Below, piece after piece: positions 4,029 through 9,900 of a stretch of DNA of 64,000 nucleotides (positions are counted from its first letter, which is position 1; every line of letters starts with the position of its first letter). Source of the stretch: an uncultured delta proteobacterium (GTDB lineage: Bacteria; Myxococcota_A; UBA9160; SMWR01). The position numbers were made by a program, and so were the translations under genes. The notes beneath the pieces were generated by a model. That model did no database searches. It worked only from the letters and a program-made list of their open reading frames with translations, and was not told the origin of the DNA. The DNA lies in contig CAWHTE010000004.1 of the NCBI GenBank assembly GCA_963832165.1, positions 352,001 through 416,000 on the forward strand, read 5' to 3'.

Positions 4029-6920
4029 ATGGCCCAGATGCAGCGAAACCTCGAACTTCAGTGCTCGAAGCTGCTCTTCGAGCGCGCGCGCGCTGCGGCG
4101 CCGGGGCGCGTAGCAGCTGCGTGCGGCGGCGCGTGCGTTCGTGCGGCGTCACCGGCGCGATCGCGCGGCTATCTGCGCTGGGTGCTGCGCAGTGTCGGCG
4201 CGAGCTCGGGGCTCGCGGTCGCACTGCTCGGGCTCGCGGCGCCCGCGAGCGCGGGGCTCGCGCCGTTCGCCGCGCAGATCGGCGCGGCGAACCCGCTGTT
4301 CTTCCAGGACGTCGGGTTGCCTCTCGACGCCTGCGTTCGGCGACCTTGACGGCGACGGTGACGTCGATGTGATCGCAGGGGAGCCGGGCGGCATCTCTCG
4401 CCTACTTCAAGAACACGGGCAGCGCGACGAGCTGCGGCGTTCGCCGCGCAGACCGGCGCGGCGAACCCGCTAAACGGGCAGGACATCGGGGGCCGCGCCG
4501 CGCCTTCGCTCGGCGATCTCGACGGCGACGGCGACCTCGACCTGCTCGCGGGTGCGGGCCTGGGAGCCTTCGCCTACTATGAGAACACGGGCGACGCGAC
4601 GAGCCCGCTGTTCCTCCTGCTCACCGGCGCGGCCAATCCGCTCGACGGCGTGGATATCGGCAGCACCGCAACGCCTTAGCGCTCGGTGACCTCGACGGCG
4701 ACGGCGACCTCGACTTCTTCGCGGGCAAGGGCGGCGGCGGTTCTACGACTACTACGAGAACACCGGCGATGCGACTACCCCAACCTTCGTGGCTCGCACG
4801 GGCGCTGCGGAACCCGCTCAACGGCTCAGGACGTCGGCAGTCTACTCGGACCCCGGTGCTCGGCGACCTCGACGGCGACGGGGACCTCGACCTGATCGCG
4901 GGCGAGCGAGGGGCGCTCCGGTGCCTTCTTCTTCGTCGAGAACACCGGCAGCGCGATCGCCCCGGCCTTCGCCGGCGCGCACGGGAGCGGCCAACCCGCT
5001 CGGCGGCGCGAGCGTGGGAAACTCCTCGGCTGCCATCGCTGGGCCGACCTCGACGGCGACGGTGATCCCGATCTGGTCGCAGGCGCGACCGACGGGGCTT
5101 CTTCACTGCGTTCGAACACCTCGGCGGACGCTTCGTGTCTCGCGGACAGGCGCCGCCAACCCGCTCGATGGTCTGACCGTCGGAGGCCCGATCGATTCGC
5201 ATCCGGCGCTCGCCGACCTCGACGGCGACGGCGATCAGGGACCTGGTCACCAGCGATGACATCGGTGAAGGTGGCACCTTCAGCTACTTCCAGAACACGG
5301 GCACGCGCGACCATCCCGGCGTTCATCCCAGCGGACCGGCGCGAGCAATCCCTTCGACTTTTTGGGCTCGCGGCGTTCCTGCAGAGTCTGACGCCCACGT
5401 TCGGCGACCTCGACGACGACGGCGATCTCGACCTCGTCACCGGCGACGCGAGTGGCCTCATTTCTACCTCGAGAACACCGGCAGCGCGTCGAACCCGGCG
5501 TTCATCGTGCGCACCGGCACGGCGAACCCGCTCGACATCGACGCCGGATACTTCTCAGTGCCTTGCCTCGGCGACCTCGACCTCGACGGCGACCTCGACG
5601 CCATCCTGGGCAACAGCGATGGCGACTTCCTGTTCCACCTCGAAAACATCGGCACTGCCTCCAACCGAGAGTTCAGGTTCCCCCGACTTCATCGGTCCTG
5701 AGCTCAATCACCTTTCCTACCCGTCGCTCGGCGACGTCGACGGCGACGGCGATCTCGACGTGATGTCGGGTGAGATCAACGGCACGTTCTACTACCTCAA
5801 TAATTTCGGCAGCTCGACCAGCTTCTTGTTTCAAGCTCTGGTCAACTCAGGGAACCCGCTCAATGGCCAGGACGTGGGGAGCAACGCGGCGCCTGCGTTC
5901 GGCGATCTCGACAGCGACGGCGATCTCGACCTAGTCTCGGGTGACTCCACGGGCGCCTTCTCCTTCTTCGAGAACTTCGTCCCGCAGACGCCCTCTGCGC
6001 TCGAGCTCACGGGTGGAGCCAATCCGCTCAATGGTCAGGACGTCGGCAGTTTCTCCAGCACTGCGCTCGGCGACCTCGACGGCGACGGCGACCGCGACCT
6101 CGTCGCGGGGGTTGGCGGTCTCGGCAGCGAGGACGGCACCTTCGCCTACTTCGAGAACACGCGCAGCGCGAAGAGCCCCGCCTTCGCGGCGCGCACGGGC
6201 ACAGCCAATCCGCTAGATGGCCAGGACGCCGGTAGCAGCTCGAGGCCCGCGCTCGGCGACCTCGATGGCGACGGCGATCTGGACCTGATCGCGGGGGAGC
6301 ACTATGGCGCGTTGAGCTATTTCGAGAACACCGGCAGCGCGACTAGTCCGATCTTCGTTCCTCGCACGGGCACGGCCAACCCGCTCGATGGCGAGGACGT
6401 CGAGGTCGCGGCGCCGTCGCTCGGCGACCTCGACGGCGACGGCGACCTCGATCTCGTGGTGGGCGAGTTCAACGGGATCTTCGACTACTACGAGAACACC
6501 GGCGACGCGGCGAGTCCCGTCTTCGTCGCCAGAACGGGAGCGGCCAATCCCCTGAATGGCAAGGATGTGGGGCTCCACTCCAAGCCCGTGGTCGGCGATT
6601 TCGACGGCGACGGCGACCTCGATCTGCTCTCGGGCGAGCTCGAAGGCGCCTTCTTCTACTTCCGGAATACCGGCAGCGCCACGAGTCCGGCGTTCGTGCA
6701 GCTCGTGGGTACGGGTCCGCTCGGCGGCGAGGACGTCGGGCAAGGCTCGACTCCCACCGCGGGCGATCTCGATGGCGACGGTGATCTCGACGTCGTTGCG
6801 AGCGAGACGGACGGCACGTTCCACACCTATTACCTCCCCGAGCCCGCGCGCGGGTGGCTGCTCGCCGCGGGGATCGCGGTGCTCGAATGGCTGCGGCGGC
6901 GTAGAAGTCGCGATGGGTGA
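4029..6920 (+). CDS. FG-GAP/VCBS-repeat PEP-CTERM surface protein 1 (multiple frameshifts in 5' half)
   Basis: Extended leader, 15 GDLDGDGDLDL repeats recoverable across frames, C-terminal YYLPEPARGWLLAAGIAVLEWLRRRRSRDG. Confidence 0.85.
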
Positions 6921-9900
6921 GTCGGAGCACACGCTCGAGGCGCAATGTGCGCGGCTGTTATTCGAGTGCGCGCGCGGCGTGGAAACGCGTCAGCAGCTGC
7001 GCGCGGCCGCGCGCGCGTTCGTGCGGCGGCACCGGCGCGACCGCGGCTTCCTCTCCTGGGTCCTGCGCAGCGTCGGTGCGTCCTCGGCGCTAGTGGTCGT
7101 GCTGCTGGGGCTCGCGGCGCCGGCCGGTGCGGAGCTCGCGAAGTTCGCGGTGCAGACCGGCGCGGCCAATCCGCTGAACGGCCAGGACGTGGGCGACGTC
7201 TCGGCACCTGCTTTCGGCGACCTCGACGGCGATGGCGATCTCGATCTGGTCGCGGGTGTGTACGACGGCACGCTCCGCTATTTCGAGAACACGGGGAGCG
7301 CAACGGCGCCGGTCCTCGTCGTGCGCAGCGGCGGGGCCAACCCGCTCGTCGGCGAGGACGTCGGAGCGCTGGCGATCCCGTCGCTCGGCGATCTCGACGG
7401 CGACGGGGATCTCGATGTCGTCATCGGTACCGGGTCCGGGACGTTCGCCTATCTCGAGAATACCGGCAGCGCGACCAGTCCCGCTTTCGAAGCCCGCATC
7501 GGACCGCTGAACCCACTCGACGGCCAGGACGCGGGCACCGCGTCGTCGCCCTCGCTGGGCGATCTCGACGGCGATGGCGCTCTCGACCTCGTCGCGGGTA
7601 ATCTCGGCGGCACCTTCTTCTATTTCGAGAACACGGGCAGCGCGACGAGCGCGGCCTTCATCTCGCGCACGGGGACCGCGAATCCCCTCGCCGGCCACGA
7701 CGTCGGCCAGAACTCCACCCCATCGCTCGGCGATCTCGACGGCGACGGAGACCTGGACCTGACCTCGGGCGAAAGCGGGGGCCAGCTCCTCCCCTTCGAG
7801 AACACGGGCTCCACCTTGAACGCGGCGTTCGTCGCCCGTCCTGTATTCCCCGTCCTCCCTTCGACGTTCTCGGCCCCGGCGTTGGGCGATCTCGACCGTG
7901 ACGGTGACCTGGACTTCGTATTGGGTCGTTCCGACGGAACGTTCGCGTACCTCGAGAACCTCGGCGGACGGATCGTGCGCGTCGGCTCGTTCGGCTTCGT
8001 TCCCGGCGGTGGGCCGCTTGACGTGTACTCGATCCCCTCGCTCGCCGACCTCGATGGCGACGGCGACTACGATCTAGTCGCCGGCGAGATCTCTGGCACT
8101 TTTCACTATTTCGAGAACACCGGCACCGCTGCGGTCCCGACATTCGTCGAGCGCACGGGCACCGCGAACCCGCTGAACGGCCAGGACGTGGGATACTTCT
8201 CGGCCCCCTCGCTCGGCGATCTCGACGGTGACGGTGACGCCGACCTCGTCTCGGGTGGAAGCAGCTTCCTCTACTATGCGAACACGGGCAGCGCGACGAG
8301 CCCGGCCTTCATCGTACGGACCGGTGTCGCGAATCCGCTGAACGGCATTGCGGGCTCTTCGAAGCCATCGCTCGGCGACCTCGACGGTGACGGCGACCTC
8401 GATCTCATTGCGAGTGGGGCATCCGGGACCTTCCGTTTCCTCGAAAACACAGGTACCGCGGCGAGCCCGGCCTTCATCGAACGGACCGGTGTGGACAACC
8501 CCCTCTCCGGCTTCGACGTCGGGAATGCTTCCAGCCCCGGTCTGGGCGACACCGATGGCGACGGCGATCTCGACCTCGTCTCCGGTGGTCATTTCGTCAC
8601 GGGCCCGCCCCTTCCCCCGCTCCGGATCGACACTTTCGAGCTCTACGAGAACATCGGCACCGTGACGGACCCCGCGTTTAGCACTGTCCCTGTCGCGCTC
8701 GAATTTCTAGTCGATGCGACTCCGTCGCTCGCAGACCTCGATGGCGACGGCGATGTCGATCTCGTCTCGGGGGATCAAGATGGAGGACTCCACTACTACG
8801 AGAACTTCCTGGTGCAATTCCCCGAGCCCGCGGTCGAGCGGATCGGTACCGCCAACCCGCTGTTCGGCCAGGACGTGGGAGTCGCGTCCATCCCCTCGCT
8901 CGGCGATCTCGACGGCGACGGGGATCTCGACGCCGTGGCGGGCGAGGGAAGCGGGACCTTCCTCTACTTCGAGAACACCGGGAGCGCGGTGAACGCGGCG
9001 TTCGTCGCGCGCACCGGTGCGGCCAATCCGCTGAACAGCCGCGACGTCGGGAGCCACGCATCGCCCGCTCTCGGCGACCTCGACGGCGACGGCGATCTCG
9101 ATCTGCTCGCCGGGCGCAGCAGCGCCGACTTCGCATATCTCGAGAACACCGGCGACGCGATCACCCCGCTGTTTGCGGCACCGCTCTCCAACCCGTTCGG
9201 ACTCCAGGGGATCGAAGGCCAGACCTCCGACTCGGCTCCGGCGCTCGGCGACCTCGACGGCGACGGCGACCTCGATCTGCTCGCGGGCGAGTACAACGGC
9301 ACGTTCGTCTATCAGGAGAACACGGGCACAGCGACGAGCCCGGCCTTCGCTCTGCCCGGCAATCAGCCGCTCGAAGACGACGCAGGGGGGTACCTCTCTA
9401 CGCCCGCGTTCGGCGACTTCGACGGCGACGGCGACCTCGATGTCGTCACGGGGAACGAGGACGGCGTCTTCTTCTACTTCCACAACGCGGGCAGCGCTGC
9501 GGCGCCGGGGTTCGGGCCCCCGAGCCCGAATCCGCTCGCGGGCAAGAACGTCGGCACCCATTCGGCTCCGGCGGCCGGCGACCTCGACGGCGACGGCGAT
9601 CCCGACGTCGTCGCGGGCGCGAACGACGGCACGTTCCATACCTATTACTTCCCCGAGCCCGCGCGCGCGTGGCTGCTCGCCGCGGGGATCGCGCTGCTCG
9701 AGCGCCTGCGGCGGCGACAGAACCGCGATGGTTGAGGTGAACCGGGCGCTCGAGACGCGATGTACGCGGATGCTATTCGAGCGTGCGAGAGGAGCGGGCA
9801 GCCGTCAGCAGCTGCGCGCGGCCGCGCGCGCGTTCGTGCGCCGCCACAGGCGCGACCGCGCCTATCTCTCCTGGGTCCTGCGCAGCGTCGGCGCGTCTTC

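Follow-up and report, generated by a model that had tools for sequence, protein, structure and literature searches.

Results and Discussion

Three tandem paralogs share a long, conserved leader

The window analysed here is a 64,000-nucleotide stretch (G000:C4:352001-416000) of the 5.5-Mb, 70% G+C genome of an uncultured delta proteobacterium. From position 4029 to 12604 of the window, the + strand carries three tandem paralogous genes for FG-GAP repeat proteins, and our subject is the long, arginine-rich leader with which these genes begin. Copies 2 and 3 are intact by translation (6913-9735, 940 aa, and 9728-12604, 958 aa), and the ATG of copy 2 overlaps the stop codon of copy 1 (ATGGGTGA). 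An earlier sequence-only reading had given both intact leaders 73 residues up to an AxA site and had counted by hand the residues that they share. A script count gives the same figures, with 53 of 73 residues identical over the leader and 33 of 35 across the core RQQLRAAARAFVRRHRRDRxxLSWVLRSVGASSAL. The mature parts are 56% identical (blastp). The leader ends in AGA followed by E in copy 2 and in ARA followed by E in copy 3.

Copy 1 had been described as bearing the same text once two compensating frameshifts are removed. The DNA alignment with copies 2 and 3 bears this out, revealing a 4-base and a 2-base insertion in the copy 1 leader by which QQLRAAARAFVRRHRRDR is shifted to the +1 frame and the frame is then restored. 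Further frame changes follow, the order by tblastn from 4029 to 5640 being 1, 3, 1, 2, 3, 1. As assembled, copy 1 is broken, and it represents either a decaying paralog or pseudogene or the result of assembly errors in a repeat-rich, high-GC stretch. The attribution of the leader to all three FG-GAP proteins is thus right as to the leader, which all three copies possess together with the preceding LE..C..(L/M)LFE.AR segment, although only two of the three genes are intact. The coordinates of all parts are collected in Table 1.

Anatomy of the leader

The anatomy was derived from a 30-sequence leader alignment (A2), eighteen columns of which are invariant. The alignment opens with a variable start of 5-30 residues, L-x-x-a-C-E-R-A-L-V-x-x-A-R and a short loop ending in G-T/S. 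There follow R-Q-Q-L-R-A-A-A-R-R-F-V-R-R-H-R-R-D, x-G-Y-L-x-W-V-L-R, S-V-G-A-S-S-A-L-A-V-A-L-L-G-L-G-A and, at the end, x-P-A-x-A. An AlphaFold2 model based on this alignment contains helices at residues 3-14, 21-34, 39-51 and 55-60 (predicted local distance difference test score, pLDDT, 83.5), and the same leader helices appear, at lower confidence, in the model of the full-length protein. Helix 1 contains a near-invariant Cys (29/30) and invariant Arg and Leu; in helix 2 the residues R, Q, Q, R, A, R, F, V, R, R, H and D are unchanged in all 30 sequences. The hydrophobic core is conserved at the level of sequence, LLG being invariant, and the c-region has Ala at position -1 in 30/30 sequences, Ala at -3 in 27/30 and Pro at -4 in 28/30.

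In outline, the leader begins with a basic module of two helices, about 47 residues in all, which is followed by a conserved hydrophobic core and ends in an AxA site. The sequence features of a Sec-type signal peptide are all present: a basic n-region, an h-region of about 18 residues (SVGASSALAVALLGLGA) and small residues at -3 and -1. With a core about 18 residues long and an A-x-A end, the leader is consistent with a substrate of signal peptidase I, which would cut it after AxA. Among the first 47 residues of the six leaders counted there are 9-14 Lys+Arg vs 2-4 Asp+Glu, and because of this excess the positive-inside rule predicts a likely cytoplasmic location for the front half.

Translation of the leader and selection on its protein sequence

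For analysis at the codon level we aligned 14 leader copies drawn from 6 genomes: this genome contributed seven, G013 and G001 two each, and G004, G005 and G017 one each. Of these copies, 11 form a core set and three are divergent. Within the core set, invariant residues differ in codon: the Leu of column 9 is encoded by CTG, CTT, CTC, CTA and TTA, the Arg of column 14 by CGC, CGG, CGA, AGA and CGT, and the Ala of columns 26 and 27 by three codons each. The G+C content at codon positions 1/2/3 of the leader is 0.81/0.63/0.89, a pattern that identifies it as a coding frame of a high-GC genome. For the closest pair, copies 2 and 3, the 70 aligned leader columns contain 15 synonymous and 18 non-synonymous changes (pS 0.26, pN 0.13, where pS and pN are proportions of differing sites); other core pairs reach a pS of about 0.58 and a pN of about 0.33. 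An in-frame ATG, GTG or TTG is found 4-28 codons upstream of the conserved block at 14/14 loci, several of them behind purine-rich stretches, and at L011 an in-frame stop lies just five codons upstream. A Lys-rich member on a metagenome contig, P0089, retains the motif CE-K-x-L ... G-R-R ... K-R-H-R-H-D. A search for sequencing runs covering 3900-7300 listed neither a run nor a holder of RNA data.

The leader is therefore translated, and it is under purifying selection at the protein level. Two doubts raised along with the first observation, that the true start lies downstream and that synonymous sites are conserved as well as the protein, were answered in the negative. The codon variety, the G+C pattern, the upstream starts and the motif of P0089 exclude a downstream start as the main form, and the same codon evidence rules out that the similarity stems from gene conversion or from a nucleic-acid element, synonymous sites being different between copies.

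The leader is more conserved than its cargo in all 55 pairs of core copies (identity 0.54-0.81 vs 0.43-0.68), with mean identities of 0.67 in the cytoplasmic part and 0.66 in the core and site, compared with 0.55 in the mature part. For the three divergent copies the leader has changed no more slowly than the cargo, its identity being the higher in 10/33 pairs. The usual view of signal peptides is of short sequences that evolve fast and can be exchanged for one another; in this family the n-region, core and site are more constant than a 900-residue cargo.

No model in the libraries searched covers the leader

Whole proteins and their first 96 residues were scanned against Pfam (matches at E<=0.01) and NCBIfam (E<=1), and no signal-type model (Tat, ESPR, YSIRK, KxYKxGKxW or PEP-CTERM) was matched. 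The sole match to the leader, a citryl-CoA lyase model at 14 bits vs a cut-off of 193, is a chance match. For YSIRK and KxYKxGKxW, where HMMER speed filters can lose such short-motif models, the motifs are also absent from the sequence, and the ESPR model (PF13018) is not among the Pfam matches of P0001 and P0002. A PDB sequence search with the leader profile returned nothing at E<=10, the ESM Atlas gave no usable match for residues 1-76, and Foldseek with a 70-residue model gave nothing at E<=0.001. The best VIA-align hit, a Zuotin four-helix bundle with Z 5.8, is within the noise for helical bundles, and Rfam had no match at E<=0.1 over 3800-13700. Full-text literature searches found no paper on such a leader. 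The suspicion that an existing model already describes it is thus not borne out by Pfam or NCBIfam.

The twin-arginine (Tat) consensus, (S/T)-R-R-x-F-L-K, precedes the h-region. The leader has two candidate arginine pairs, in RRHRRD and in RRD-x-G-Y-L, neither of which is followed by x-Phe-Leu, and with no Tat model matched either, the earlier description of a leader that resembles the Tat motif but misses it is accurate.

The leader marks a single protein family

When the leader profile was run against 1.84 billion cluster representatives, 68 proteins were matched at E<=0.001. Seven of these (P0082, P0085, P0086, P0088, P0093, P0096 and P0097) were set aside as spurious, being matches to TREQVKAERDEF-type repeats or other low complexity. 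The rest, many of them fragments, were judged genuine: wherever the in-frame sequence continues, FG-GAP repeats follow directly after AxA, so that the search and cargo listing suggested at the outset yield FG-GAP as the only cargo. In P0028 and P0076 the leader lies far from the N-terminus, probably through merged reading frames. Two of the matches carry the public names 'FG-GAP-like repeat-containing protein [Myxococcota bacterium]' and 'VCBS repeat-containing protein [Deltaproteobacteria bacterium]', and the leader is also present in 32 metagenome proteins.

Among 40 relatives of this genome, the leader occurs in 5/24 genomes of the same family and in 0/16 from the order's other families. 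In a sample of 401 genomes of the phylum it occurs in 7, all within two families of one Myxococcota order. This genome has 8 leader copies, namely 6 intact ones, copy 1 and a frameshifted one at C4:149k, and every multi-repeat FG-GAP gene of the same type in it bears the leader. The frameshifted paralog (G000:C4:148195-151398; L006/L023, L032) is split into open frames of 805 and 440 codons.

The similarity among leaders is far beyond chance. Since the genuine matches all carry FG-GAP repeats and the PEP-CTERM gene next to the array has an ordinary signal peptide, the leader is the hallmark of one protein family and not a general label. Its profile (alignment A2) can serve as a specific marker for this FG-GAP family.

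The cargo and its C-terminal tail

P0001 matches the FG-GAP families PF13517 (E = 5e-63) and PF01839 (E = 3e-50). The mature parts consist of about 15 repeats of about 57 residues each, and the AlphaFold2 full-length model (pLDDT 80.8) is a chain of about 15 propeller blades; a fold search with the cargo returned multi-propeller proteins. A Pfam scan of the cargo detected no autotransporter or two-partner secretion (TPS) domain and, besides FG-GAP, gave weak sub-cut-off propeller matches (BBS2_Mid, Beta-prop_BBS7 and Itfg2).

At the C-terminus P914, E915 and P916 are invariant in 36/36 sequences and are followed by a hydrophobic helix, LLxAGxALL, and by RxRxR. With this succession of PEP, hydrophobic helix and Arg-rich end, the proteins resemble the substrates of PEP-CTERM/exosortase sorting (PF07589, PF09721; PMC1569441). 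In this genome five loci score above cut-off for the exosortase model, in six stretches of which two adjoin on C3, and PEP-CTERM matches above cut-off number 48. However, the tails of the leader family fall below the model cut-offs: P0001 and P0002 match neither the Pfam model (PF07589) nor the NCBIfam variants, a genome-wide PEP-CTERM scan scored two paralog tails at 14.6-15.1 bits vs the 20.7-bit cut-off and did not list copies 2 and 3, and no exosortase gene lies beside any leader gene of the genome. It is only by the visible motif that the leader family can be assigned to PEP-CTERM. The view of the leader as the sign of a PEP-CTERM subclass is sustained by that motif and tail but not by the model scores, which are below cut-off, and the genome's other PEP-CTERM proteins lack the leader.

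The leader is linked to one clade of the DUF4915/TIGR03032 family

The leader and FG-GAP unit travels with one clade of a family of proteins, DUF4915/TIGR03032, for which full-text searches brought up no literature. Ten genomes of the 401-genome sample contain TIGR03032, and its leader-linked clade is found in 7/7 leader-positive genomes vs 0/394 others. The two types separate by score: copies at 359-389 bits occur in exactly the 7 leader-positive genomes of the sample, and copies at 442-496 bits in G262, G293 and G325, with a second copy in G301. In a quick IQ-TREE analysis of 50 DUF4915 sequences, with arbitrary root, the leader-linked proteins form one clade (11 rows; Shimodaira-Hasegawa-like approximate likelihood ratio test, SH-aLRT, 100) and the high-scoring type another (100), the leader-linked clade being nested in a 36-row group (99).

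A DUF4915 gene lies beside the leader gene, or at most about two genes from it, in 7/11 leader-positive genomes, in arrangements that differ. It overlaps the leader gene end by four bases in G345, is directly upstream of the leader gene in G183 and G301, is divergent from the adjoining leader gene in G001, and directly follows two tandem leader genes in G005. The single DUF4915 gene of this genome (C7:77677-78672) is separated from the C7 leader gene by a gene for a TPR-GT41 glycosyltransferase. G004 has the same layout with one further open reading frame called in between, about two genes apart, and in the L080 record the DUF4915 gene is 3.5 kb from the leader gene. The TPR and GT41 enzyme is encoded next to DUF4915 in G000, G004, G291 and G389, divergently in the last two. 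Members of the second DUF4915 clade (L062:1360-4008 in G262; L063:1213-3039 in G301) join the domain, within a single reading frame, to TPR repeats and then to more C-terminal sequence that continues past the end of the retrieved stretch.

The leader-linked DUF4915 proteins begin with M..PTTPF.QHTPQ.PE.LAE, at the conserved domain, with no hydrophobic N-terminus or signal peptide. In the absence of a hydrophobic N-terminus they should be cytoplasmic.

A possible pre-export step at the leader

We tentatively propose, with a little less than even confidence, that the leader is a cytoplasmic handle for the co-inherited DUF4915/TIGR03032 protein, which would hold or process the FG-GAP pre-protein ahead of its export by Sec and before signal peptidase takes the leader off. 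The back half of the leader would be the Sec signal peptide, and the front half a cytoplasmic two-helix module serving a pre-export step with DUF4915, which may be docking, holding or modification. In some genomes the TPR-GT41 enzyme could join this step. On this proposal DUF4915 would contact the leader itself rather than the unfolded cargo; export would then proceed by Sec, with the leader presumably cut after AxA. The sequence-only reading had inferred a possibly undescribed signal for targeting, chaperone binding or translocation pausing. The chaperone-binding or pausing idea gains indirect support from the DUF4915 link; the leader does not serve as a general address label, FG-GAP being the only cargo among the genuine profile matches.

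Several observations weigh against a handle for DUF4915. In two of the leader-positive genomes, G013 (84% complete) and G017 (95% complete; divergent leader), the search for DUF4915 came up empty; conversely, G002 and G006 (66% and 77% complete) have it on contigs of about 4 kb with no leader detected. In G291 and G389 the leader and DUF4915 genes are on different contigs. In this genome DUF4915 is near only 1/8 leader genes, and a comparison of six of its leader loci revealed no common neighbour apart from the C7 locus. The leader and the FG-GAP cargo are never found apart here, so that DUF4915 may be tied to the cargo. A second DUF4915 gene of G005 directly follows the gene of a different FG-GAP protein (L072:3-1943, G005:C50). 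The co-occurring genomes, moreover, are kin, belonging to two families, which inflates the tally. The best-studied analogue also argues the other way: in the passages of PMC8151025 that treat type 5 adhesins, neither the ESPR nor the whole signal peptide is required for their glycosylation in the cytoplasm.

The protein encoded at L072:3-1943 is of the PF01839 type and has a C-terminal helix and RRRR, its N-terminus being cut by the contig end.

GT41 was not found in G001, G005, G183, G301 or G345; the ortholog search scored just two candidates per genome. We therefore rejected GT41 as the constant partner, and glycosylation is ruled out as an outcome common to all these genomes. The arrangement in G000 and G004 is like that of HMW1A/HMW1C and other adhesin-glycosyltransferase pairs, with the gene of a cytoplasmic GT41-family enzyme next to that of a large secreted repeat protein, and in HMW1A/HMW1C-type systems, according to the sections of PMC8151025 on them, cytoplasmic modification precedes export. 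In G291 and G389 the same TPR-GT41 enzyme adjoins DUF4915, away from the leader gene. Unlike in HMW1A/HMW1C systems, the constant partner is DUF4915 and not GT41, and the FG-GAP proteins are known here from their genes.

Alternative explanations

The main rival is an ESPR-like pacing of export without DUF4915, which we regard as rather unlikely when taken as the whole explanation, and which is compatible with a handle for DUF4915. The basic module would slow or time Sec, or tether the protein at the inner membrane, so that some 15 calcium-binding blades and a sorting tail are handled in order before the leader is cut. The general architecture is alike: ESPR (PF13018), too, is a conserved N-terminal extension that precedes a canonical Sec signal peptide, and the surface proteins bearing it are likewise very large and repetitive. 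In the parts of PMC8151025 that deal with its function, ESPR is reported to delay inner-membrane translocation and to prevent periplasmic misfolding, and is described as in principle dispensable for targeting and thought to time export. Such pacing would also suit the 7/8 leader genes of this genome that are not near DUF4915 and the two leader-positive genomes in which DUF4915 was not found. However, it leaves unexplained the co-occurrence with one DUF4915 clade and the repeated adjacency, as well as the residue-by-residue conservation of the cytoplasmic helices, including one Cys and one His, and there is no sequence match to PF13018. The leader differs from ESPR in being about 47 residues and two predicted helices long instead of 25 residues, in being strongly basic and in having a hydrophobic core that is conserved too. 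In place of an autotransporter or TpsA protein, its cargo is a multi-propeller of the FG-GAP kind ending in a PEP-CTERM-like tail, and it has the genomic link to DUF4915. Long conserved extensions of signal peptides are thus already known from ESPR; what differs here is the sequence, the length, the cargo, the taxon and the genomic partner.

The remaining alternatives are less likely than either of these two readings. One, which we consider quite improbable, is that the signal is never cleaved and serves as an anchor: the core would remain inserted in the inner membrane, and the 47-residue module would be a permanent tail on the cytoplasmic side, with a role in signalling, retention or clustering, while the propeller would be the ectodomain of a type II membrane protein. 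The conservation of the core (SSALAVALLGL, with its small-xxx-small spacing and invariant LLG) is seldom seen in signal peptides that are simply discarded and is typical where helices make specific contacts, and the cytoplasmic module is predicted to be structured. Against an anchor stand the near-uniform Pro and Ala residues of the c-region, with Ala at -1 invariant and A/V/L-x-A retained even by the most divergent members, and the shortness of the core, which at only about 18 residues is Ala/Ser/Gly-rich as is usual in cleaved peptides. The proteins also have a C-terminal membrane-sorting tail.

Long signal peptides with post-targeting functions occur in viruses and eukaryotes. By analogy, the cleaved 73-residue peptide might remain in the membrane, or an intramembrane protease might set it free, and it could then have a regulatory role, for example by binding nucleic acid or a regulator through its Arg-rich helix, and it is indeed the whole leader (helices, core and site) that is more conserved than the cargo. 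We nevertheless hold a stable leader peptide to be highly unlikely: the PDB profile, Foldseek and VIA-align searches found no match to nucleic-acid-binding folds above noise, and up to eight near-identical regulators per genome, each made on a 100-kDa cargo, would be uneconomical.

Still less credible is the absence of any long leader, with a start at the GTG of FVRRHRRD (codon 37), a 37-residue signal peptide and an upstream similarity due to gene conversion or a nucleic-acid element. This Val codon (7021-7023 in copy 2) is GTG in all 11 core copies, in which other Val columns mix GTG, GTC and GTA, and copies 2 and 3 have a pS of 0.57 over their mature parts and about half as much, 0.26, over their leaders. 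Given these two observations, a minor internal start, giving the 37-residue signal peptide, or some local homogenisation is possible. In addition, the codons of RAAARA in copies 2 and 3 (7001-7016 and 9816-9831) form a perfect palindrome, GCGCGCGGCCGCGCGC. It is absent from copy 1 and the other paralogs, where the Ala codons vary, and is probably a by-product of codon choice. The residues upstream of the GTG, however, are conserved through synonymous change, P0089 retains the protein motif, and the codon itself is CTG, GTC and GTC in the three divergent copies. No Shine-Dalgarno-like motif precedes the GTG, purine-rich motifs precede several of the upstream ATGs, and Rfam gave no match.

A Tat signal with a long n-region, suggested by the paired arginines (RRHRRD) shortly before a mildly hydrophobic core, by the long Arg-rich n-region and by the idea of a cytoplasmic binder acting before export, can hardly be entertained, since x-Phe-Leu follows neither RR pair and no Tat model was matched. 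To our knowledge, calcium-binding FG-GAP propellers have no evident need for folding in the cytoplasm.

Should the leader be the contact point of DUF4915, as we tentatively propose, this would provide a first testable function for DUF4915 and would mean that a Sec leader can double as the docking site for a cytoplasmic partner on very large proteins. Annotators would also be warned that the 'too long' N-termini of such genes are real.

Extensions beside DUF4915 in other phyla

We surveyed 80 DUF4915 loci from a species collection, screening for long stretches before the first hydrophobic segment and then searching with a profile made from six matches. The Myxococcota leader profile matched at four loci, all from relatives of this genome in the same order. 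A second kind of two-helix extension, reading F..L..R...L...GEF..L....R..L.RR.+.LYN.L and followed by a hydrophobic core, appeared at 13 loci in Bacteroidota and Spirochaetota (Table 1), a figure to be taken as a lead and not a count, the screen having had no background control and start codons having been used as called. At least two of the cargoes look FG-GAP-like. The DUF4915 genes beside the second kind group together (87), within the 36-row group that also holds the Myxococcota clade. By eye, three more loci with long extensions were seen, one in Methylococcaceae and two in Chloroflexota. The paralogs of the Methylococcaceae locus (L091, 8485-11331 and 11971-14787) have a third kind, of about 65 residues (LNRLCAEAVQQQ...TQLRNRRRHLAKQV.KR), ahead of a hydrophobic core and ALA followed by EPVF.

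It is possible, if doubtful, that the leader is the substrate-recognition tag in a pre-export pathway, widespread and so far undescribed, with cytoplasmic DUF4915 propellers at its centre. Every lineage would have evolved its own two-helix tag before a Sec or lipoprotein signal, and DUF4915, alone or with a TPR-glycosyltransferase or other enzymes, would grip 100-kDa surface proteins and modify or hold them. Such a pathway would resemble the leader peptide logic of ribosomally synthesized and post-translationally modified peptides (RiPPs), applied to giant adhesin-like proteins. In hhalign the leader and the second kind of extension gave a probability under 1%, so that homology is undetectable. 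For the handle that we propose, the loci of the other phyla count as a parallel in favour, and the lack of detectable homology as a point against.

Features of the array and its neighbours

Table 1. Coordinates of the leader genes and their parts in the window, with the gene used for comparison and the loci bearing the second kind of extension.
Feature	Position or locus	Strand	Remarks
Copy 1 leader	~4029..4253	+	+4 and +2 base insertions; helix 2 in another frame
Rest of copy 1	4254..6920	+	Several frame changes from 4254 to ~5640; intact from ~5640
Copy 2 leader	6913..7131	+	73 codons; residues 1-7 variable, then conserved module to AGA (followed by E)
Predicted helix 1, copy 2	6934..6975	+	Residues 8-21, LEAQCARLLFECAR
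Predicted helix 2, copy 2	6985..7041	+	Residues 25-43, TRQQLRAAARAFVRRHRRD; Arg-rich, amphipathic
Interface segment and hydrophobic core, copy 2	7042..7119	+	Residues 44-69: RGFLSWVLR, then SVGASSALVVVLLGLAA
c-region P-A-G-A, copy 2	7120..7131	+	Predicted signal peptidase I site
Copy 2 mature part	7132..9735	+	~15 FG-GAP blades, FPEPA, hydrophobic helix, Arg-rich end; PEP-CTERM-like tail begins ~9652
Copy 3 leader	9728..9946	+	73 codons; start overlaps copy 2 stop (ATGGTTGA)
Copy 3 mature part	9947..12604	+	FG-GAP repeats, PEP-CTERM-like tail
Comparison gene, same gene row	12601..13617	+	FGE-sulfatase domain, model-confirmed PEP-CTERM tail, ordinary short signal peptide (MKTMSAVVSLALVTCAASAGA)
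Loci with second kind of extension	L088, L090, L092, L093, L094, L095, L100, L107, L109, L112, L114, L116, L119		Some end in lipobox-like LAGC

The comparison gene, which has no long leader, is coupled to copy 3 by a 4-base overlap. A PilZ-domain gene on the opposite strand (13614-14126) abuts the array. Downstream, 19052-29172 is a dense block of hybrid histidine kinases (one of them MASE1-CHASE-PAS), response regulators and a GGDEF regulator. Together with the PilZ gene, this block places signalling of the cyclic di-GMP (c-di-GMP) type beside genes for surface proteins.

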